A stretch of 64,000 nucleotides of DNA, from the NCBI GenBank assembly GCA_017609985.1, contig JAFCCW010000013.1:36429-100428 (forward strand), given 5' to 3'. Made by a program: the position numbers and the translations under genes. Source of the DNA: Candidatus Iainarchaeum sp. Lineage in GTDB: Archaea; Iainarchaeota; Iainarchaeia; Iainarchaeales; JAFCCW01. Shown in pieces: positions 4,223 through 64,000 of this stretch (positions are counted from its first letter, which is position 1; every line of letters starts with the position of its first letter). A model generated the notes under the pieces. That model worked only from the letters and a program-made list of their open reading frames with translations. It had not been told where the DNA came from and searched no databases.

Positions 4223-5410
4223 ATGCCAACTTATTCTCATTCTCGTCTGAACAAGTTTGAGAACTGTCCGCTCTCCTACTACTACAGTTATGTAGACAAA
4301 CCTTATGTTGAATACGTGCAGGGGATTGAGGGTTTTCTTGGAAACATAGTTCACAATACTCTTGAAAAACTTTACAAAGAACTTATGCTCACAAAATTCA
4401 ACTCCCTTAACTCCATTCTTCAATACTATGAAAAGCAGTGGAAAGAAAACTTCACTGAAGACATTGTCATTGTCAAAAAAGGACTGAAGGCAGAGCACTA
4501 TCATGACCTTGGCAGAAAATGCGTTGAAGACTATTACGCGCGTCATCAACCGTTTGATGAAGACAAAACAATCGCCTGCGAAAAACGCGTAACCATAAAG
4601 CTGGATTCGGGACACAGGCTGTGTGGTTATATTGACAGGCTGTCTGAACAAGAGGAAGGTCATTACGTGATACACGACTACAAGACATCCGGTCGCCTGC
4701 CCATACAAGACCAAGCAGACCAGGACAGACAGCTTGCGCTCTACCAGATTGGAGTCTTGCAGGAATTCAATGACGCGCTTGATGTAGACTTGTGCTGGCA
4801 TTATCTTGCTTTTGACAAGGACATCTGGAGCAAGCGAAGCGAGGAAGACCTTGACGAACTCAAAAAGAACATAATATCTCTTATTGGGGAAGTTGAAAAA
4901 GCAGAGAAGAAAGGAGAGTTTCCCTGCAAGGAAGGCCCTCTCTGCTCTTGGTGCATGTTCTCTCACATCTGCCCTGCAAAGGGTCACGAGGTACTAGTGG
5001 AAAACCTGCCTGTTCGGGAATTCAAAAAAGAAGCTGGTGTGAAAATCGTGAACCAGTATGTGAAGCTGAACAACGAGATAGCCGAACTAAGCGGGAAGTT
5101 GGAAGAGATAAAACAGGATGCGTTTTCTTATGCTGATCAGCATGAATTGGAGAAAATTGTCGGAAGCGATGCTGCTTTGAAAATTTATTCAGGGAAGAGT
5201 TTTTCACTGGCTGGGCTATCTGCTGAACAGAAGGAAGAGCTGGAAAAGCTGTTAAAAGACGAGAAGCTGTTGAAGCGATTCCAGTTGCTTGACACAAGAG
5301 CGCTGGGGAACGCGGTTGCGAAAGAGGAATTAGAGAAAGGCGCTGTGAAAAAAATCAAGAAGTTTGGAGAAGAAAAAGAAAACAAGAGTTTAAGGATTGT
5401 AAAGAAGTAA
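4223..5410 (+). CDS. PD-(D/E)XK nuclease, RecB/AddB/Cas4-like, stand-alone
   Basis: YSHSRL..FENCP, GNIVH, GYIDRL, IHDYKT, QLALY, C..C.....C (CSWCMFSHIC). Confidence 0.88.
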   Translation: MPTYSHSRLNKFENCPLSYYYSYVDKPYVEYVQGIEGFLGNIVHNTLEKLYKELMLTKFNSLNSILQYYEKQWKENFTEDIVIVKKGLKAEHYHDLGRKCVEDYYARHQPFDEDKTIACEKRVTIKLDSGHRLCGYIDRLSEQEEGHYVIHDYKTSGRLPIQDQADQDRQLALYQIGVLQEFNDALDVDLCWHYLAFDKDIWSKRSEEDLDELKKNIISLIGEVEKAEKKGEFPCKEGPLCSWCMFSHICPAKGHEVLVENLPVREFKKEAGVKIVNQYVKLNNEIAELSGKLEEIKQDAFSYADQHELEKIVGSDAALKIYSGKSFSLAGLSAEQKEELEKLLKDEKLLKRFQLLDTRALGNAVAKEELEKGAVKKIKKFGEEKENKSLRIVKK

Positions 5411-5628
5411 GATTTTGCTAAACCAGATCCGCTAATGACTTGAACTGGAATTTTCCTTTTTTAAATTGAAAATTAATAATTAATAATCCTTGCAATTACT
5501 TTGCTCTTTTTGGAACAATCCTGTCTTTAGAGTCCGCCGAAAACAGATATCACAAAATCAAAGGGTTTTTTTGGTTTAAATCCATTGATATGGCGAGAAG
5601 TTTTTGAAGATTAAAAATCTTTTCGTTT

Positions 5629-6657
5629 TTAGACAACCATCCACTTGAAGTAGACGAGTGAGAGAACAACCAGGCAGATTGCTGTCTGCATTCCAAGAAT
5701 AATCTGGGTAACTTGTTTTTCAGTGAACTTGCCTTGCCTCATTACCCAGTGGGTTAGTGAACCGCCGTTAGGGCTTGCTTTCAAAGTGCCGTCTTCCTGT
5801 GGCAAGCCAAAGCACTCTGACTTAAAGCCATGCCTTGCCTTGAACAATAACTCCACAAAGAAAAGAGAGAACAACAGAATACCAATCTTTTCCATGTCGC
5901 CGACAATCACTGCTGCAGCAGCAGCTGCACCGTAAAGAAGTGTAAGAGAATCGCCTCCGAAAATTTTTGCAGGAAACCAGTTAAATCTTAGAAATCCAAG
6001 CAGTCCGCCAAGAACAGCAGCAGAAATTACTGCACTCTCTGCAATTCCTAAATAAAGCGAGACAATCAAAATGCTTCCGTGAATTAATGCGCCTAAACCT
6101 GCTTCCAGTCCATTGAATCCAGCAAGCATATTAGCAGCATTGCTTGCTCCAGTAACACCAGCTGGAACAAAGAAAAGAGAATAAAACAAGCCAAATGAGA
6201 CATAGCCGAATACTGGAATCATTATTTCTGTTGGCAAAGGGCCAATGAAGGGAATATTCATTGCAGGATTGTTTATTTTCACAGCCATTAATGGAAGCGC
6301 AGCAAACACTGGCATTAACGCGTGCTGCCACTGCTTTATTCCAGACTTCCACCCAAGCAAGTCGTCAACAAAACCGATTACTGCTACAAGAGCTATTGTG
6401 CAAAAAGCAGCAAGTATTAAAGTAATGTTCAAATCAATAATGTGCAGATAAGAAAAAGCAAACAACGCTGCTACAAGACCCAGTGAAAATCCAAAGAAAA
6501 CAGACAATCCTCCGATTTCCGGAATGCGCGGATTTCCCACTTTATTCATGTCTTTTCCAAGCAAGTCTCTTGCCTTAATTCTTTCAATAAGTCTGGGTGT
6601 AATAAACAAGACAGTTGCAATGGAGAGAAAAAAACTGATAAATGCTGCTAAAAGCAT
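5629..6657 (-). CDS. UDP-GlcNAc:dolichyl-phosphate GlcNAc-1-phosphotransferase (AglH/Alg7/GPT-like, MraY family)
   Basis: GKDMNK, PEIGGL, GFVDD, NAANMLAGFNGLE, FNWFPAKIFGGD. Confidence 0.88.
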   Translation of the reverse strand: MLLAAFISFFLSIATVLFITPRLIERIKARDLLGKDMNKVGNPRIPEIGGLSVFFGFSLGLVAALFAFSYLHIIDLNITLILAAFCTIALVAVIGFVDDLLGWKSGIKQWQHALMPVFAALPLMAVKINNPAMNIPFIGPLPTEIMIPVFGYVSFGLFYSLFFVPAGVTGASNAANMLAGFNGLEAGLGALIHGSILIVSLYLGIAESAVISAAVLGGLLGFLRFNWFPAKIFGGDSLTLLYGAAAAAAVIVGDMEKIGILLFSLFFVELLFKARHGFKSECFGLPQEDGTLKASPNGGSLTHWVMRQGKFTEKQVTQIILGMQTAICLVVLSLVYFKWMVV

Positions 6658-6665
6658 TAAGCCAC

Positions 6666-8867
6666 CTACTTCACCTTGAAGATTTTAACGCCCTTAAAAC
6701 TGTAAACCTCTTCAAAATGCTTCATCATTTCTGGCTCGTGGAACCAGAGTTTTGCCATTGCTGACTCATTAGTATTCTTGGAGAGGAAGAAAATTTCAGA
6801 GTTGTCCTCTGCTCTGTAATACCACAGCAAGTCATTGTTCTGAGTAGTGGTTGGCATCTTCTGCCAGTCAGTTGAAATTGAAGACATCTGTCCGACAGGA
6901 ATAGTGTTTGCTCCGCATCTGTAAGCTGTGTCGTTTTCTATCAGATTGCAGTAGAAATTTATTCCCCCATAAGGCAGGGTTGGAACACCATAGTGCTGTA
7001 CTATTCGTGGATCTTGTGAATTTGTTGTCCAGTAAGCCCAGTAAGCAAGAGAAACCTGTTTTTGAAAATTATCAGAGTCAATAAGGATATAGTCTGGTTT
7101 ATATTTATCTACGATTGAAAACGCTTTGTTAATGTCTTTTGTAATAATGAATTCAGCCATTGCACTGGCAGCTTCCTGGTCAAGATTTCTGTTGTCAGTA
7201 AAAACTGGACGCTCCGCGAGGAATGAAATCCAGTGCCCTTCATCCCACCAGTTCATAATCGTTGAACCCTCTGGAGTACTTTCCTTAAGCCAGGCTGTTG
7301 CAGCCTTGTAATCCGGATTTGACTCAATCATTGGAACATGACCTTCAACAAAAATAGCTGAAGCAACAATTCCATTAATCATTAACAATCCAATAACTCC
7401 AAAAGCTCCTGCCTTGACAATAGTGTCCCCCTTGGAAGAGAAAAACATAGCCATTGCTGTAAGAAAAACTGCTGACAATAAGATGGAGAGCCATATGCCA
7501 ACAGGCAAAGCAACAATAAACAATATGAGAGCAATTGCTCCGGACAAAATCATCTTGTTGTGCCTTGAAAGATTGTTAAGATAGTAACTCATTTCTGCTA
7601 CGACAAATCCTGCTGAAGCAGCAATCGGAAGACCAAAGGTAAACGTGAACTTTAGCTTGTACCAAGCCATGAAAAAAGTAATCAAAATCCAGAAAAACAC
7701 TATTCCTGAAAGATGCTCTTTTGGTTCCCTGAACATTCTGAGCGGAATCAAGAGCAAAGCAATAATCGGCAAAGCAATCAATGCATTGTATTTTCTTCCA
7801 AAGGATTCCTTTCCAGTGCTTTCCTCTCCAACGCTTGATTCAATTAGTCCAGAGCCCCTAAAATCGTTGACTGTGAGCAGGGTTCCAACAAATGCGAGCA
7901 GAATCAAAAACATGAGTGCAAGGGAAACAAATGAAACCCATTTGCTGTTGTCCTTGCTTTCGTCTCCACCCATTACAAACATGATATAGGCAACTAATCC
8001 ACCGAACAAGACAAGTCCGCCGAGCAACAGAAGACCAATTCCCTCAGGCATTACTCCAAGCACGTAGCTGATTGACCTGTTAATCCACTTTCCGCCGTCA
8101 TTCACGGAAGCGATTAATGCAAATATTCCAAACGAGATTCCAAACAGTTTTGCAAGATTGAACAATTCCTGCTTGCTTCTCTTGTTGTAAACATTAATCA
8201 AAGCAAACACGAGATAGCCGACTAAAACCATTGGGATTAATAGGAACATTTCCCAGGTCAAAGCCATTATTCCAAAGAATACTCCTGAGGCAACAGCATA
8301 TCCTGCAGTTCTCTTGTTGAATTCTAGTTTTTTCAGGGACGCAGTCAAGAAACCAAGGCCTATTACCATCCAGAGAAACCCAAGAGAGTCCTCTTCAAAG
8401 AAACCAGACATTGTTCTGTAAACAAAGCTTGGAACAATTGCTGCAAAGAAAGCCATTGCAAAGCCAGCTCTCTTTCCATAAATATTTTTTCCGACAAAGT
8501 ATAGTCCGACAGCAGTCAAGGCTCCATAAATTGCAGGCAAAAACTTTACATGCTGAATCCAGAGCTCTTTGCTGTAAGCTGCTCCAAGAGTTGTAATCGA
8601 GTAAACAAGTGCGTTAAAAATCCAAAAAAACTGTCCTTGGTCTGGCAGGTCTGATCCTCCAGACTGCCAGTAAGCCATAAAGTCCTTGTCCGGCACTGCC
8701 CCGGTCTTAATTACTTCTCCAACAATCTTGGTGTGAAAATAAGAATCAAATCCAAAAAGCAAGTCATATTTTGACATGTGAGCTCTGACACCAAACGCCA
8801 GAACGAAAATCAGCAAGAGAATCAAGATTGTTTTCTTGTTTGCCTTAATCTTGTTAACCAAATCCAA
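6666..8867 (-). CDS. aglB: Oligosaccharyltransferase AglB (STT3 family)
   Basis: GFDSYFH, RTMSGFFEED, SVGEE, WWDEG motif; many TM helices; GGTGA SD before TTG start. Confidence 0.93.
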   Translation of the reverse strand: MDLVNKIKANKKTILILLLIFVLAFGVRAHMSKYDLLFGFDSYFHTKIVGEVIKTGAVPDKDFMAYWQSGGSDLPDQGQFFWIFNALVYSITTLGAAYSKELWIQHVKFLPAIYGALTAVGLYFVGKNIYGKRAGFAMAFFAAIVPSFVYRTMSGFFEEDSLGFLWMVIGLGFLTASLKKLEFNKRTAGYAVASGVFFGIMALTWEMFLLIPMVLVGYLVFALINVYNKRSKQELFNLAKLFGISFGIFALIASVNDGGKWINRSISYVLGVMPEGIGLLLLGGLVLFGGLVAYIMFVMGGDESKDNSKWVSFVSLALMFLILLAFVGTLLTVNDFRGSGLIESSVGEESTGKESFGRKYNALIALPIIALLLIPLRMFREPKEHLSGIVFFWILITFFMAWYKLKFTFTFGLPIAASAGFVVAEMSYYLNNLSRHNKMILSGAIALILFIVALPVGIWLSILLSAVFLTAMAMFFSSKGDTIVKAGAFGVIGLLMINGIVASAIFVEGHVPMIESNPDYKAATAWLKESTPEGSTIMNWWDEGHWISFLAERPVFTDNRNLDQEAASAMAEFIITKDINKAFSIVDKYKPDYILIDSDNFQKQVSLAYWAYWTTNSQDPRIVQHYGVPTLPYGGINFYCNLIENDTAYRCGANTIPVGQMSSISTDWQKMPTTTQNNDLLWYYRAEDNSEIFFLSKNTNESAMAKLWFHEPEMMKHFEEVYSFKGVKIFKVK

Positions 8868-8924
8868 AAAATCACCAAGCGTACAGAACCTAATAATTGG
8901 AACAATAAATTGTTTAAAAGGCTA

Positions 8925-8972
8925 TCTTGTAAATTAATTCACAAAAACTCTTGTAAATTAATTCACAAAAAC
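8925..8972. repeat. Perfect 2 x 24-bp tandem duplication between divergent aglB and membrane-protein genes
   Basis: tcttgtaaattaattcacaaaaac at 8925-8948 and 8949-8972; each contains near-palindrome TTGT-A-AATTAATT-C-ACAA. Confidence 0.95.
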
Positions 8973-9008
8973 ATTACTTTTTTATATAAAAAGATTATTT
9001 AAGTTATC

Positions 9009-9812
9009 ATGTTTGAGAGCTTTGGGCGAAGTTGGAATCTTATGAAACAGAGCTTTTCAGTTCTCAAGAAAGATAAAGAACTCATTGCTTTTCCTATTCT
9101 CTCCGGAGTCTTTGCAGCAATAGTTATTGTTTCTTTTTTGATTCCTATTTTTGTTGTTGAATCGCTTTTTGATTCTCCCATTATCTATGTTTTGCTCTTG
9201 CTCATGTACATTGTTTTGTACTTCTTTGTTGTATTTTTCAATGCAGCTCTTGTCGGAGCAGCAATGATTAGGATGGGCGGGCAGGACCCAACACTGGGAG
9301 ATGGTTTAAACATCGCGTTTTCAAACATCAAAAATATTTTTCTCTGGGCTGTTGTTGCAGGAACAGTCGGACTTGTCCTGCGTATGCTTGCAAGCCAAAG
9401 CAAGAAAAATTTCATCGCAAGCATATTGGTTTCAATTATTGGGGCTGCTTGGACTCTCTTAACTTACTTTGTTGTTCCGACAATTGTGGTTGAGGGAGTT
9501 GGTCCATTGAAGGCAATCAGGAAATCCAAGCAAATCATTTTTGAAAAATGGAGGGAAACAATCCTTGGAGGAATTGGATTTGGATGGATTCAGGCAATCT
9601 TCTCAATTATAGCAATCATCTTATTTTTTATAGTGTTTTTATTTCTCCCATTTTTAGCAATTCCGGCAGCAATTATTTTACTTCTTGCAGTTGTCTTTAT
9701 AGGTCTTGTTTTTTCAGCTCTTGCGGGAGTGTTCTCTGCAGCAGTCTACTATGCATCTGTAACTGGAGAAAATCCTGATGGAATTGATCTTTCGGTTCTA
9801 AAGAAAAGCTGA
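9009..9812 (+). CDS. Membrane protein, DUF6159-like
   Basis: SFSVLKKDKELIAFP, FFNAALV, YFVVPTIVVEG..AIRKS..KWRE pattern. Confidence 0.75.
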   Translation: MFESFGRSWNLMKQSFSVLKKDKELIAFPILSGVFAAIVIVSFLIPIFVVESLFDSPIIYVLLLLMYIVLYFFVVFFNAALVGAAMIRMGGQDPTLGDGLNIAFSNIKNIFLWAVVAGTVGLVLRMLASQSKKNFIASILVSIIGAAWTLLTYFVVPTIVVEGVGPLKAIRKSKQIIFEKWRETILGGIGFGWIQAIFSIIAIILFFIVFLFLPFLAIPAAIILLLAVVFIGLVFSALAGVFSAAVYYASVTGENPDGIDLSVLKKS

Positions 9813-9863
9813 TTATTAAAACAAGACTGATAACTTAAAGTAAAGTTTATTCACTTTATTTAC

Positions 9864-10427
9864 GTGGCTTCAGATGTTTTTTATCGGCAGATAACTGCTA
9901 ACGAAGTAAATGTGTCTCCTGAGTTGCGAGCAAAACTACTTGATTTAATGATTGAGTCATTCCTTGGCTGGAACTATTCTTCTGCGGGGGAAGAAGAGAT
10001 TGCAAAGCAAAAAGAAAAGCTTAGCCAATCTTATCAGGCCATGGCAAAGAAAAGATTGGATGCTTTACTTCACACAAACTCTATTTTTGTGGCAGAGCGA
10101 AACAATCAAGTAATTGGCTTTGCAGGGCTGACAAATATTGGTTCAGAGGACAAACCATTTTTTCAGCTTGCAGAAATTGCCTTTGAGAAAGGTGAAAGAT
10201 TTCCAAGGAGGGCAGACGGAAAGATAATTGTGGCACACAAGTCTCCTATGTCAAGAGTAAACTTTATGCGTTGGCTAAGAAATTATGCTTTTGAACGAGG
10301 CGGTTACTTTGCCTTCAATTCAGGCAGAAGACATGACTTGTTTGGAACAGGATCTAATGCAAGAAAGTCTGTTACAATAGTTCACGATTCTGCTGACTAT
10401 AGGTACAAAACAACAAAAAGGAAATAA
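9864..10427 (+). CDS. Divergent GNAT-like orphan protein
   Basis: IFVAERNNQVIGFAGL beta-hairpin typical of GNAT; basic C-terminus. Confidence 0.55.
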   Translation: MASDVFYRQITANEVNVSPELRAKLLDLMIESFLGWNYSSAGEEEIAKQKEKLSQSYQAMAKKRLDALLHTNSIFVAERNNQVIGFAGLTNIGSEDKPFFQLAEIAFEKGERFPRRADGKIIVAHKSPMSRVNFMRWLRNYAFERGGYFAFNSGRRHDLFGTGSNARKSVTIVHDSADYRYKTTKRK

Positions 10428-48661: not shown

Positions 48662-49393
48662 CTATTCAGCTTTTTTCCCTAAAATAGATTTCAACTCATT
48701 TTTTGAAATCCTTTCAAACTTCTTTCCTTTTTCAATAAACGCAAAATCAAGCCTGTTTACATCAGCTTTTTCTTTTTCAAGACCTTTCTCGATTGCATTC
48801 ACAATCAAATTGACTCCGTTTTCAAACGAGATATTGTCTTTGTAATTTTTCTCAAAGTGCGTCATTGCATTTTTTCTGCCTTTTCCAATTGCAATCGCCT
48901 TGTATTCTGCAAGAGCTCCAGAAGGCTCTGTTTCAAAGAGTCTTGCTCCGTTATCGTCATAACCGCCAATTATCAGAGAAATTCCAAAAGGTCGCATTCC
49001 TGCATACTGGGTAAACAACTGCTTTGTTCCAGCAACCTTTTTTACAAGAGTTTCTACTCCTATTTTTTCCTCATAATACATCTTGTTTTCCTGAGCTTCC
49101 TTTCTTGCAAACTGAATAATTCTTCTTGCATCGCCAACAAGACCGGAGGAGATTGCTCCAAGATGGCTGTCAATTTTGAAAAGCTTCTCAATGCTGTCCG
49201 GAATAATCATTTTGCTGACAACTTTCTTGTCTGCTCCAAAAATTACTCCATTGCTGTAAACAAGACCTGCTCCCAGAGTGCCCTGCTCCACGATTTTTGA
49301 AGCATATTCTACCTGATAGAGTCTCCCGTCTGGGGAAAACATTGTCGCAACCCTGTCATAAGCATTACTTTTTTTGTTAGCCATTGGATACAA
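48662..49393 (-). CDS. psmA: Proteasome alpha subunit
   Basis: YDRVATMFSPDGRLYQVEYA, RPFG, EPSG. Confidence 0.96.
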   Translation of the reverse strand: MYPMANKKSNAYDRVATMFSPDGRLYQVEYASKIVEQGTLGAGLVYSNGVIFGADKKVVSKMIIPDSIEKLFKIDSHLGAISSGLVGDARRIIQFARKEAQENKMYYEEKIGVETLVKKVAGTKQLFTQYAGMRPFGISLIIGGYDDNGARLFETEPSGALAEYKAIAIGKGRKNAMTHFEKNYKDNISFENGVNLIVNAIEKGLEKEKADVNRLDFAFIEKGKKFERISKNELKSILGKKAE

Positions 49394-49502: not shown

Positions 49503-50579
49503 CTAACCAGAATACAAAGCAAGAATTTCAGCTTCAGATAAAGCTCTGTCCCAGACCTTGAGCTCGTCAATCTTGCCGTCCCAGTAATCACTGGTGTTGG
49601 CAATTGATCCAATATACATATAGTTAGCGTGAGAAGAGACATAAACCTGTGCTGTTCCTGTTTGTTCTACTCCATTAACATACAGGTAACGACTACCATC
49701 AGCTACTACTCCGACAACATGATACCACTGGCCATATCCGCCTAATTCAGTGATTGGGTCTGAAGATTTTGATCTCCAGCTTCCATCATAGTAACCAAAC
49801 TTTATCTTATCGTCTTCCTCAATGTTCATTCCAACCCTGTCTGCAGTCCCGTGTGAATTCTGGAAGATAACCATCTGCCCGGGGCTTGGAGAGTCATCCG
49901 GGTAAACCCAGACAGACACAGTGAAATTTCTGTCAACAGCAATTTCTGGCAGGTTTGTTGCCCTAGCCCAGTCGTCTTCTCCGTCAAACTCTAGTGCGTT
50001 TCCGCTTTTTCCTGTTGTCCAATTTGCGTCAAATATTGTTCCACTGTTTCCACCACAGCCCTCACTTATTGTTGTTCCTGTTCCTTCGTTGAAGTTGTAG
50101 CAGGCTGTTGCTGAGGTTGAGAGGATTGTTCCGGTTGTGGTGTTTGCTGTTCCGTTTCCTGTGATTTTTGCTTTTACTGGTAGGCCGCCGGTTGTTGTGT
50201 AGCTTATTTCGATGTAGGCGTCTGTTAGGGTTGGTGTGTTTGAGTCTAGGTTGGTTATTGTGAAGGTTTGTCCGTTTTCTGCTGTGGTTGGTGTTGCTGT
50301 TGCGTCTCCTGCTTGGTCCATTATTCCGTTTCCGTAGTCTGTGACTGTGATGTTGGTTATTGTTCCGCCTGTCATGTTTTGTAGTGTGAGGCCGATTGTG
50401 TTTGTTCCTGTTGTGTAGGTTGATTCTTTGACTAGGAGTCCTGAGTTGTTGCTTATGAAGGTTGCTCCTCCTGTGAAGTCGCCCATTACGTAGATTGCTA
50501 CTCCGACTACGATGGCAATCATCATTAAGACCCACCCATAAGTCATCAAATATTCCAACGCAGCCTGACCTTTGCCCAT
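49503..50579 (-). CDS. Type IV pilin-like protein (class III signal) with C-terminal LamG domain
   Basis: MGKGQAALEYLMTYGW class III signal; ALEFDG, FTVSVWV, WYHVVG, LYVNG, GKIDELKVWDRALS. Confidence 0.88.
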   Translation of the reverse strand: MGKGQAALEYLMTYGWVLMMIAIVVGVAIYVMGDFTGGATFISNNSGLLVKESTYTTGTNTIGLTLQNMTGGTITNITVTDYGNGIMDQAGDATATPTTAENGQTFTITNLDSNTPTLTDAYIEISYTTTGGLPVKAKITGNGTANTTTGTILSTSATACYNFNEGTGTTISEGCGGNSGTIFDANWTTGKSGNALEFDGEDDWARATNLPEIAVDRNFTVSVWVYPDDSPSPGQMVIFQNSHGTADRVGMNIEEDDKIKFGYYDGSWRSKSSDPITELGGYGQWYHVVGVVADGSRYLYVNGVEQTGTAQVYVSSHANYMYIGSIANTSDYWDGKIDELKVWDRALSEAEILALYSG

Positions 50580-50618: not shown

Positions 50619-51377
50619 TTACCCTGAAAGAAGCATAATCCCGGCAAAAATCAAGGGCTGATGTAAAAAGTAAATAATCAGAGAATGCCTTCCAAGAAAA
50701 GAAAGCAGATTGAATGGAATTATCGTGCCATAGTCTGGAAAACCAAAGCTTCTTTCCCCGTCCTTGTAAATTCTTTCCCCGCACCATAACCCAAACAATA
50801 CAAGTCCAGCCCAGGGAAGCAAGGGAGTGTAATCAAAGGAAGAAAATCCAGTTGGAACAAGCCCTAGCCACAAGAGCCAGGGAAAAGAAAACCTTAAATT
50901 ATGTATAAGAAAACCTGTTCCTAGTGCTCCCAAACCAAGAACTCCACTCCAGCTCTTTTTGTAGAAAGCAGGAGAAACCATTATTGTTAATCCAATGAGG
51001 TGAAGTATTCCAAAGAAAATTGTATTCGCTGGAAAAATCAGTTCTGTAAATAAGGTGATAATCAAACCCAGTGAGAAAATTCTTGCTCCTCTTTTCAAAT
51101 ACTTTCTCCAGAATATGTTTTCTGAATTTTTTTCTGAATTTTTTTTCAGGCTTTTTTCTGTTCTCTGCATTGAAATTGCAAGAGAAATTCCAACTAAAAA
51201 AACAAATATTCCTGCAGTCAGTCTTGCAAAATAAAGCCAGAATCCTGATGAAACTTCAAAATTCCAGCCAGCAAAATACTGCAGGTCAAAAATTGTGTGA
51301 AATGAAACCATCATCAGGATGGCTATTCCTCTTAGGCCATCAATTTCCCAGAATCTTTTTGTGCCTGTGCCCGCCAT
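50619..51377 (-). CDS. DUF1624 / HGSNAT-like membrane protein
   Basis: EIDGLRGIAILMM, FGILHLIG, DYTPLLPW, GRHSLIIYFLHQP. Confidence 0.88.
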   Translation of the reverse strand: MAGTGTKRFWEIDGLRGIAILMMVSFHTIFDLQYFAGWNFEVSSGFWLYFARLTAGIFVFLVGISLAISMQRTEKSLKKNSEKNSENIFWRKYLKRGARIFSLGLIITLFTELIFPANTIFFGILHLIGLTIMVSPAFYKKSWSGVLGLGALGTGFLIHNLRFSFPWLLWLGLVPTGFSSFDYTPLLPWAGLVLFGLWCGERIYKDGERSFGFPDYGTIIPFNLLSFLGRHSLIIYFLHQPLIFAGIMLLSG

Positions 51378-51741
51378 ATCCTCTCAGCTTTTTAAGAGTC
51401 CCTGATGTTTTAATTGTTTTAATCTTTACTTTTTTGTCTTCAACTTCATTTATTTTTGGAAGAATCTTTCTCAAGTCCTCTGCTTTTTCAAGAGCACATC
51501 TGACAATTCCCTTTCCCTGCTTAAATTCAATAACTTTTATGAAAAACTTTTTTGCCTCACTTACTCCTGCTTCCTGAACAAGCCCAAGCCATAGCAGGTT
51601 TTGAAGCTTGTCCTTTGACGAAATCTCTGCTCCACTCAATGAAAACTTGATGTATCTCTTCTTAGGGCGTTGGCTTGGCTTCAGCTTTCTGATTTCCTTG
51701 CTTTTCTTTTCCTGCTTGCTTTGTTTTTTCATTTCAATCAA
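51340..51741 (-). CDS. RNase P protein Pop5/Rpp14
   Basis: PSQRPKKRYI, GIVRC, TSGTLKK. Confidence 0.85.
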   Translation of the reverse strand: MIEMKKQSKQEKKSKEIRKLKPSQRPKKRYIKFSLSGAEISSKDKLQNLLWLGLVQEAGVSEAKKFFIKVIEFKQGKGIVRCALEKAEDLRKILPKINEVEDKKVKIKTIKTSGTLKKLRGYGGHRHKKILGN

Positions 51742-62805: not shown

Positions 62806-62976
62806 TCAATAACAATATTCCATTTAGATATATTAAGGTTTTGCTTTGAATCTGTTCTTGCTTTGAAAAAGTGTAATAAAAATTTTTTTTGTTTTATTGT
62901 CTTGATTCTTGAGAAAAGCCTTTTTAAGGATAAAGTTTTTATATATAACAAATTTTAACTGGTTGGGGATTGGGAA

Positions 62977-64000
62977 GTGTTTTATAAAAAAGCTTTAAGT
63001 ATAGCATTAGGTCTAATAGTTATAGTCTTATTTCTCGTGCCTGCTTTTTCTCTTGATTTAAATCTTGTAAGCCCTTCTGGAAACAGTTTTCTGAACAAAT
63101 GGCAAACGATTGACTTCAATTCGAGTGGGGGAATTTTTGACCTGAATATTGGTTTGTCAGACAATGCAGGCGACTTCAATTATTTTGTGGGCTATGACTT
63201 GAATTTGTCCACCCAAAAAAACCTGCCACTTTACTACGAGACGTTTGAATCATATGCTGCTGTCAGAAAAAATAATGGCTCGATTAACGGCTCGCCAGAA
63301 ATTGTTTCCGGGCACAATGAAAATGGGTTTCTTTTCAATGGTTCAACCGACTACATAGCGTTGGCAGATAGCTTTACTCAAGACCTGTTAAGCAATTATA
63401 CTTTGTCAGTATGGTTTAAGGCAGATTCTACAAGTGGATTAAGTGGAATTTTTGCAAAAGATGGGGGTGCTGGTAAAGATGTGTATCAACTAAGAATAAA
63501 CAATGGTTCACTTGAAGCTTACATTCGAGATGGAAGTAGTTCTGATGCTACTCTCTCCTATGCAATTTCTACAGGAGAATGGTATAATGCAGTTATAACA
63601 AATGATGGTTCAAAGATTTCGCTTTATGTAAATGGAAATTTTAAAGATTCTTCAACAAACTCCCTAGGAGCAATTACTCCCAATGAGTCATTTTATATTG
63701 GTGACATAATAAGTCCACCCAATTATTCATTTGAAGGAGTTATTGATGATATAGCAATCTACAACTACGCAAAATCCAGCGAAGAAATCGCCTACGACTA
63801 TAATGAGAGTGTTCTCAAATATTATCCTTATCCTTTGGATGCAAAGTCTGGTTCTGACACAAACTCGTGGAGATTCAACTGGAATTCCAGGCAGGCATTG
63901 ATGGACGACGGAGTTTTATTATATCTTCCGTTTGACAACATTGGCGACTGGAACTCGCAGCTTGGAGCAGTTGATGCAAACCTTGTCAAAGATTTTTCCA
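62977..64000 (+). CDS. Secreted LamG-domain protein (runs off window)
   Basis: Hand translation from GTG: signal peptide; FNGSTDYI, YTLSVWFK, WYNAVIT, LYVNG, FEGVIDDIAIYN. Confidence 0.85.
   Translation, partial: MFYKKALSIALGLIVIVLFLVPAFSLDLNLVSPSGNSFLNKWQTIDFNSSGGIFDLNIGLSDNAGDFNYFVGYDLNLSTQKNLPLYYETFESYAAVRKNNGSINGSPEIVSGHNENGFLFNGSTDYIALADSFTQDLLSNYTLSVWFKADSTSGLSGIFAKDGGAGKDVYQLRINNGSLEAYIRDGSSSDATLSYAISTGEWYNAVITNDGSKISLYVNGNFKDSSTNSLGAITPNESFYIGDIISPPNYSFEGVIDDIAIYNYAKSSEEIAYDYNESVLKYYPYPLDAKSGSDTNSWRFNWNSRQALMDDGVLLYLPFDNIGDWNSQLGAVDANLVKDFS

Follow-up and report, generated by a model that had tools for sequence, protein, structure and literature searches.

In the archaeon Candidatus Iainarchaeum sp. 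(assembly GCA_017609985.1), a gene for a type IV-like pilin fused to a Laminin_G_3 (LamG) domain contains an unbroken series of 150 codons that, three ATG codons apart, all end in A or C. The gene lies in the 64,000-nucleotide stretch analysed here (the window: contig JAFCCW010000013.1, positions 36,429 to 100,428 of the forward strand), and coordinates given without a contig name count from the first letter of that window. The tract is best accounted for as a single-copy tract of intense nucleotide skew, of the type published for bacteria as GRINS, that is bounded by recombination, and its composition records a strand-level bias of transition type, filtered by selection on the protein and set within a recombinational mosaic. 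The genome examined, 1.16 Mb in size, is 86.6% complete with an estimated contamination of 2.97%. The gene, the parts into which codon usage divides it and an open frame that overlaps the tract are:

49503..50579, minus strand: the pilin-LamG gene, an open reading frame (ORF) of 358 amino acids plus stop, encoding a pilin N-segment, a pilin core, a Thr/Gly linker and Laminin_G_3
50517..50579, minus strand: codons 1-21, ordinary usage, 5 of 16 informative third positions A or C; the conserved pilin N-terminus
50067..50516, minus strand: codons 22-171, the A/C-only tract, 147 of 147 informative third positions A or C
50040..50066, minus strand: codons 172-180, an ordinary patch that interrupts the skewed zone, 4 of 9 endings A or C
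49953..50039, minus strand: codons 181-209, a partly skewed continuation that reaches the start of LamG, 21 of 27 endings A or C
49506..49952, minus strand: codons 210-358, the remainder of the LamG domain, ordinary usage, 69 of 141 endings A or C
50062..50535, minus strand: a 157-amino-acid open frame over the tract, rich in Arg, Asn, His and Lys and of low complexity

An earlier note on this DNA had reported, from a hand count, that codons 22-171 end only in A or C and that their leucine codons are only CTC or CTA. Both observations hold, with all 147 informative third positions being A or C and the leucine codons being CTA (five) and CTC (three). The probability of 147 consecutive codons with such endings (A/C endings) is 5.6e-45 at p=0.5 and 2e-13 at p=0.82, the highest value for any whole ORF in the genome, and the 95% lower bound for the local p within the tract is 0.98. 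In a six-frame scan of the whole 1.16-Mb genome, the tract is unique in length, the next longest A/C runs having 63, 55, 50, 50 and 41 codons. Its A+C content is 0.56, 0.61 and 0.98 at the first, second and third codon positions, respectively. Five 150-nt windows inside the tract have, on the plus strand, GC skews of +0.16 to +0.42 and AT skews of -0.49 to -0.70, both pointing toward G+T on that strand, and the flanks have a negative GC skew.

The skew is specific to a segment of the pilin-LamG gene at this locus. Residues 3-147 of the encoded protein are 52% identical to a 151-amino-acid stand-alone pilin encoded in the same genome (contig C25:44677-45126) and 34-47% identical to pilins from related genomes, but the gene for the paralog has 46% A/C endings, 15 homologous pilin ORFs of relatives have fractions of 0.47-0.65 with runs of at most 13 codons, and four further homologs have fractions of 0.57-0.63. 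Genes on the same strand in the neighbourhood of the tract have fractions of 0.44-0.66, and the contig as a whole is balanced, with 0.50 for genes on the plus strand and 0.52 for genes on the minus strand.

The bias acts on the DNA strand and not on codon preference. TTA accounts for 45% of the A/C-ending leucine codons in bulk genes, but for none of the 17 leucine codons in six pure runs, and as TTA also ends in A, its avoidance argues for a strand-level rather than a codon-level bias. The A+C content at the first and second codon positions of the tract is the highest among 13 homologous pilins. Relative to the paralog, these two positions have 29 differences of the G>A or T>C type and 15 in the reverse direction, and the encoded proteins differ in their content of Asn (8.7% in the tract versus 4.7% in the paralog), Val (4.7% versus 9.3%) and Cys (0.7% versus 4.7%). 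The pilin tract itself lies inside a single gene; A/C endings that follow the strand irrespective of gene direction were observed in relatives, described below, and in two regions of the same genome. Over 50 kb of contig C25, the A/C endings of Pfam-confirmed genes follow strand and not gene function, with means of 0.64 for the plus strand (n=26) and 0.40 for the minus strand (n=15). On contig C11, a Pfam-confirmed tRNA_edit (YbaK-like) gene on the minus strand (7461-8003) has 10% A/C endings and the plus-strand genes have 0.77. Contig C11 is 11.6 kb long, and its two ends are 114-nt inverted copies of each other. At all eight tract-bearing loci that could be evaluated, of which at most seven are independent, the A/C-rich strand of the tract is also the slightly A/C-richer strand of the neighbouring DNA. 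A strand-specific mutational process, one of the origins the earlier note had proposed, has a signature that fits these data in the first positions of leucine codons, in codon positions 1 and 2 and in the independence of gene direction seen elsewhere.

Selection on codons or on the messenger RNA (mRNA) would offer a different explanation, with the tract serving high expression through Watson-Crick-matched tRNAs that have G or U at anticodon position 34 (G34, U34), or providing an unstructured message poor in G and U, and with rare codons kept in the signal peptide. A/C-ending codons are the exact matches of G34 and U34 anticodons, and the S19e and thermosome genes do have somewhat raised A/C endings. 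The tract mRNA is also predicted to fold more weakly than 100 synonymous recodings (-60.3 versus -84.0 +/- 6.2 kcal/mol), in line with selection against RNA structure as raised by the earlier note. That proposal is weakened, however, by mirror-image tracts, with G/T-only third positions, in secreted proteins of a related genome (G004, below) and in the tRNA_edit gene of contig C11. The tRNA set is ordinary, with C34 in 11 of the 38 tRNAs found, so that G-ending codons are served, and loss of C34 tRNAs as the cause of the A/C endings was rejected on the same count. The avoidance of TTA, the shift at codon positions 1 and 2, the strand dependence over 50 kb of contig C25, an integrase gene that shares the same regime and the ordinary codon usage in the LamG half of the same message all argue in the same direction. 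Selection of this kind is largely refuted as a general cause, and we consider it very unlikely here. In addition to a tRNA-Ile with anticodon GAU, ARAGORN identified a tRNA-Ile with anticodon UAU on contig C27 (24214-24289).

The earlier note described both edges of the tract as sharp. This is true of the 5' edge, where codons 1-21, mostly G/T-ending as claimed (5 of 16 informative positions A or C), encode a 13-residue block identical in the paralog and directly precede the pure tract. It is not true of the 3' edge, which is a mosaic. There, the ordinary patch at codons 172-180 (4 of 9) is followed by codons 181-209, in which A/C endings (21 of 27) are more frequent than in codons 210-358 (69 of 141; Fisher p=0.006), and the skewed zone thus continues in patches to about codon 209. 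Its length is 450 bp for the pure tract and 564 bp with the patchy tail. Gene conversion, also proposed in the earlier note, is in keeping with these patches and with similar ones between two alleles described below. Recent conversion of the 5' end from the paralog was rejected, because the DNA of the two genes is only 75% identical over 72 nt, and an own-genome search gave no DNA match to the paralog over the tract. The possibility of an overlapping gene in the 157-amino-acid frame was likewise rejected. This frame would be a mechanical by-product of tract composition; its codons start on third positions of the pilin codons, so none starts with T and no stop codon occurs.

Sequences related to the tract are present in a sludge metagenome run (X1) that contains 6% of the sampled words and yielded five short contig pieces, one of them informative. 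Outside these pieces X1 gave no cover of the window, which is uninformative. The informative 151-nt contig spans 50389-50539 with four differences from the window, and both of its variant codons retain an A or C ending. As this contig bridges the 5' junction, that junction is real. The X1 allele is 97% identical over about codons 3-64 and diverges from the window just before the start codon (50536-50579 compared), and so the same mosaic gene may be present in another upstream context in the X1 sample. These data also bear on whether the gene is an artefact of assembly, in which the ends of a resident gene were joined to the middle of a homolog from another organism. Most of the other pure tracts in the genome are at contig tips, contigs have 114-nt overlaps of the sort that a de Bruijn graph produces, and the bin has an estimated contamination of 2.97%. 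Both junctions, however, preserve the reading frame, the alignment of the protein with the paralog continues through the 5' junction, pilin-LamG fusions occur elsewhere (protein P0010 and a 395-amino-acid ORF in genome G021), and the 5' junction is bridged in X1. An A/C-recoded homolog would, moreover, have almost no k-mers in common with the flanks, which would make a mistaken join in the graph difficult. An artefact therefore appears quite improbable.

The pilin tract is one of a class within the genome. Stretches in which A/C endings make up at least 80% over 80 codons sum to 14.6 kb and include a gene for a tyrosine integrase (Phage_integrase, E=2.3e-20; contig C37:35021-36262) that has 82-90% A/C endings, starts 68 bp after a tRNA-Asn gene and reaches the contig end. 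This stretch probably marks one edge of an integrated element, and contig C35 ends in a related integrase. Skewed DNA is also found in an arginine-synthesis operon (contig C1:3865-15683; 72-83% A/C endings) that contains two ORFs resembling argininosuccinate synthase, and an HVO_A0114-family regulator is among the skewed genes. The first 3.7 kb of contig C1 are ordinary. Several genes for secreted, Cys-rich or repeat proteins have pure tracts at contig tips, and pure tracts lie exactly at the tips of contigs C5, C20, C26, C12, C18 and C16. In two cases these tip tracts form near-identical pairs that end at the same base, C5/C20 being 94% identical over 300 nt and C26/C12 identical at 149 of the first 150 nt, and it seems that assembly of this population breaks off within tracts of this kind. 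A common layout, with an ordinary, conserved 5' part and the tract downstream, is found in the pilin gene and in the genes of C5/C20 and C18. The C5 and C20 alleles of one gene have 21 differences in two patches, many of them consecutive and synonymous; 15 are G/A or T/C with the A/C state in C20, two have the opposite polarity and four are transversions. This pattern, in these two sequences, looks like conversion between A/C-recoded and ordinary versions of the same sequence.

Skewed DNA on a much larger scale is present in relatives. An order-wide scan for 48 consecutive A/C third positions gave matches in 89 of 196 genomes, which is not a count of true tracts because many matches are Lys/Glu-rich, low-complexity DNA in any frame. 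Relatives were examined by region rather than as whole genomes, those with the most pattern matches being sampled this way. In 4-kb windows of contigs G116:C2 (65 kb), G022:C2 (152 kb) and G154:C1 (27 kb), the plus strand has an A+C content of 0.30-0.49, and of 0.43 or less in all of these windows except four of the 37 of G022:C2. The latter is skewed along its entire 152 kb, whereas a 20-kb region on another contig of that genome (C1:100-120 kb) is unskewed. On G116:C2, the bulk GC skew is 0.17-0.32 and the AT skew is -0.24 to -0.41. Nine minus-strand genes tested against Pfam, eight of which have a Pfam match, have 0.83-0.94 A/C endings and include RPA, SRP54, FtsY, ThrRS and aRF1. Fifteen of the 16 plus-strand genes tested in the same way, which include RadA, NurA, HerA, Rad50 and ABCE1, have 0.12-0.24, and the sixteenth, transglutaminase-like, has 0.38. 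Genes on the A/C strand of this contig also favour CTA, and their products contain more Lys, Ile, Thr, Gln and Asn. The amino/keto skew in these relatives thus extends over 65-152 kb independently of gene direction and rivals that of animal mitochondrial DNA, and we found no description of such whole-contig skews in these archaea in the literature.

Relatives also have skewed tracts on the scale of single genes. The mirror image of the pilin tract is present in genome G004 (contig C55, locus L071), in which two paralogous secreted proteins encoded on the plus strand (5353-7863 and 8776-10101) have ordinary codons in a conserved N-terminal domain of ~120 residues followed by long tracts with G/T-only third positions in the repeat-rich region. 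Giant surface proteins of relatives have 0.83-0.90 A/C endings, with runs of up to 101 codons, beside same-strand genes with ordinary usage. Homologs of these proteins within one genus have 0.59-0.80, and for one skewed giant protein the nearest ortholog within a genus is only 45% identical, too distant to show recoding in progress. The longest A/C-only runs in relatives have 122, 101 and 83 codons. The 122-codon run is in one of the tested minus-strand genes of G116:C2, with no Pfam match at E<=1e-8 that is DnaG-like by sequence. The earlier note would have abandoned a special origin for the pilin tract if equally long runs were common in ordinary genes. Long runs do exist in relatives, but none reaches 150 codons, and these genes are not ordinary, being instances of the same phenomenon.

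The closest described counterpart is GRINS, bacterial coding regions in which intense GC and TA skews are correlated, shift abruptly along the sequence and reach their maximum at third positions, with amino-acid shifts between Thr, Pro, His and Gln on one side and Gly, Val, Cys and Trp on the other (PMC8256042). As defined there, the mean absolute GC and TA skews exceed 0.15 in 150-nt windows and are correlated, the region is longer than 500 bp, and it is more than 80% identical in DNA to another region of the cluster or genome; GRINS are tied to gene conversion and occur also in transposases and integrases, an association with RuvA is reported, and single-copy skewed regions are mentioned (PMC8256042). 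The pilin tract has skews of this strength and correlation and is abrupt in the same way, with the maximum at third positions and with Thr-type residues in C+A-rich parts versus Val, Cys and Gly in G+T-rich parts. As in GRINS, the skewed tracts here are linked to gene-conversion mosaics and extend to an integrase. The length of the pilin tract is borderline at 450 bp pure or 564 bp with the tail, and it has no repeat in the 86.6%-complete genome, whereas other tracts of the same genome do pair (C5/C20 and C26/C12). It also differs from GRINS in occurring in an archaeon and in a pilin gene, and in that its polarity follows the local strand skew, whereas in GRINS opposite polarities are found on the same strand within 1 kb. 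The main text of the GRINS paper, as distinct from its supplements, nowhere contains the word 'archaea' (PMC8256042). In the literature searched, which included a word check of PMC12999951, no description of such tracts in archaea or DPANN was found.

Replication-associated strand asymmetry, which is most extreme in vertebrate mitochondrial DNA with its A/C-rich L strand (PMC1794132), provides a second comparison. It has the same A+C versus G+T axis, with deamination-type transitions, a maximum at third positions and an effect on amino acids, and in the relatives the skew likewise extends over 65-152 kb regardless of gene direction. The pilin tract, in contrast, occupies ~0.5 kb in one gene of a contig whose strands are nearly equal (0.50 versus 0.52).

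In the origin that we favour, tentatively and with a little less than even confidence, the pilin core evolved in strongly skewed DNA and entered the gene by homologous recombination. At every site the protein permits, the coding strand carries A or C, in net terms through G>A and T>C (seen from the plus strand of the window, C>T and A>G), which is the footprint of a mutation bias on one DNA strand, of deamination or keto-mispairing type and filtered by selection on the protein. The core would have evolved under an extreme amino/keto asymmetry like that of the 65-152 kb regions in relatives, and would then have taken the place of the resident core when an orthologous or allelic pilin-LamG gene recombined homologously with the resident gene. 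The conserved pilin N-terminus would end at the 5' crossover, with a patchwork of small conversion tracts on the 3' side. Ordinary recombination would suffice, and RadA is present in the genome; mosaic patches are seen, and skewed DNA exists in the order. The other skewed tracts at contig tips and beside the tyrosine integrase next to tRNA-Asn are further points in favour of recombination. The concordance in polarity at eight of eight loci also fits import, because orthologous segments would have been exchanged between genomes of the same gene order.

Several observations weigh against this origin. A DNA search of the genome gave no second copy of the tract, the best other match being 19 nt (E=0.24), and no other copy, and hence no donor, was found in protein searches of first 41 and then 196 genomes of the order, in a set of 5.8 billion proteins searched at near and shorter lengths, in JGI metagenome contigs or in IMG/VR. 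The nearest relative of the tract protein anywhere searched is the paralog of the same genome, at 52% identity, and the best in the 196 genomes has 47%. No gene measured in the skewed relatives is as pure as the tract with its 147 of 147, the highest fraction there being 0.94 and the longest run 122 codons. An A/C-recoded donor and an ordinary recipient would have few identical stretches in common, which would make homologous recombination difficult; recombination would be easier if the donor already had an ordinary 5' end, and the existence of such ends is suggested by the X1 allele, the C5/C20 gene and the C18 gene. Independent read support covers the 5' junction and not the 3' junction, the polarity concordance fits a local process equally well, and the cause of GRINS-type skew is itself stated as unknown (PMC8256042). 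The earlier note's description of the tract as a cassette with a distinct history is therefore upheld in that its history differs from that of its flanks, but not in the sense of a swappable module, as there is no other copy in any of the sets searched.

Alternatively, the tract could have been made in place by local strand-specific hypermutation, G->A and T->C on the coding strand, possibly by the process that makes GRINS. Such a process would act in the variable parts of genes for surface proteins and mobile elements, would spare conserved 5' ends and, with harmful changes removed by selection, would proceed until all free sites are saturated. The saturation of the tract exceeds any chromosome-scale value measured, and the layout of an ordinary 5' part followed by a pure tract recurs in the pilin, C5/C20 and C18 genes and, with opposite polarity, in the two G004 proteins. 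The match of tract polarity to a weak local strand skew at all eight loci, and the predominance of clustered transitions on this axis among the C5/C20 differences, would also be expected. GRINS provide a precedent for abrupt local skews, for which local error-prone replication has been proposed by the authors (PMC8256042). The search for machinery near the tract or for a reverse transcriptase, suggested by the earlier note, was, however, negative: there is no recombinase, deaminase or reverse transcriptase among the 24 neighbouring ORFs and no RVT_1 match in the 87%-complete genome. The consecutive, purely synonymous C5/C20 differences resemble conversion from a homolog rather than single events, and the neighbouring genes and the remainder of the pilin-LamG gene are unaffected. 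We know of no local strand-specific hypermutation of this kind in archaea and regard an origin in place as possible but rather doubtful.

As pilins and surface proteins are classic targets of programmed variation, usually with a conserved N-terminus and a variable core, the tract could also be the expressed copy of a set of silent cassettes such as pilS, or the target or template of a diversity-generating retroelement. In Neisseria, pilE and pilS form mosaic surface-antigen genes by homologous recombination, and the pilin-LamG gene resembles them in having the conserved pilin N-segment as a crossover zone, a core of different history and small conversion patches. Diversity-generating retroelements of DPANN archaea diversify the surface proteins of tiny archaea, but require a reverse transcriptase and a template repeat and change only adenines. 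Although the class of target and the layout of N-terminus and core fit, no silent donor or other copy of the tract was found in the 87%-complete genome, no near-identical copy of the kind that the earlier note had proposed to look for was found in other pilin loci (the paralog is 52% identical in protein), there is no match to RVT_1 and the bias is not adenine-specific. Programmed variation is thus extremely unlikely.

Given its domain content, the product of the gene is probably a modular type IV-like pilin that carries a lectin-type adhesin module and functions as a pilus adhesin. The N-terminal segment is the conserved N-terminus of archaeal type IV-like pilins, apparently of the class III signal-peptide type, and is common to the paralog and 68 short homologs, some of which are named 'Class III sig...' or 'UPF0333 family' in their source; homologs are labelled 'Candidatus Diapherotrites'. 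The Pfam Class_IIIsignal model gave no match to the protein at E<=0.1, the class III motif having been read by eye. Residues 199-352 match Laminin_G_3 in Pfam (E=8.7e-29; 101.1 bits versus a curated cut-off of 27.6), and the domain has sequence matches in the PDB to 4qvs_A (7.4e-9) and 5hon_A. The genome encodes a prepilin peptidase (Peptidase_A24, E=1.2e-10; contig C25:78925-79743). Other fusions of this kind are the 395-amino-acid ORF in G021 and P0010, with an archaeal-type N-terminus, and P0009 is a bacterial-type fusion (Pfam PF07963 plus PF13385). Modular type IV pilins that carry lectin or adhesin modules, such as PilB and PilC of Streptococcus sanguinis, likewise have a pilin N-terminus fused to a concanavalin/LamG-type module, a likeness that bears on the role of the protein and not on its codon pattern. 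A second Laminin_G_3 protein is encoded on the plus strand of the window (62959-63999, E=4.3e-26), has ordinary A/C endings (0.47) and extends past the window end.

The pilin-LamG gene and an acyltransferase gene beside it lie between pop5 and psmA, within the exosome-proteasome superoperon:

51340..51741, minus strand: pop5 (RNase P Rpp14/Pop5), the upstream flank of the insertion
50619..51377, minus strand: an HGSNAT-type acyltransferase gene inserted beside the pilin gene, with ordinary codon usage (0.49 A/C endings)
48662..49393, minus strand: psmA (proteasome alpha subunit), the downstream flank

Downstream of psmA, the superoperon continues with SBDS, Rrp4, Rrp41, Rrp42, L37ae and prefoldin. 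Pop5 was found beside psmA in 12 of 23 related loci, and in 9 of these 12 the gap between the two genes is 80-145 bp, as against 1946 bp here, consistent with the earlier note's view that the gene interrupts the superoperon.

Intense local skews that recode proteins have been known since 2021, and an archaeal case is apparently undescribed in the literature searched. The pilin tract is unusually clean in being saturated and single-copy, with one sharp edge and with an ordinary-codon paralog in the same genome that provides a built-in control. As relatives carry the same skew axis on scales from 0.1 kb to 152 kb, they make it possible to ask directly whether tracts of this kind arise in place or arrive by recombination, and the range of sizes also allows a test of whether extreme replication asymmetry would suffice as their cause. 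In practical terms, such tracts interrupt assemblies, give rise to long overlapping frames that are spurious, and distort tests of codon usage and of horizontal transfer when applied to small archaeal genomes. A more speculative proposal, which we think unlikely on balance, is that a localized, strand-specific 'recoding' operates in these tiny archaea on variable parts of genes for surface proteins and mobile elements, driving free G and T on one strand to A and C, or the reverse in genes of the other orientation; it would be the same process as that behind GRINS and, left unchecked, would produce the skewed regions of 65-152 kb. If that is so, the pilin tract would be the cleanest known end state of such recoding, with all 147 sites saturated.

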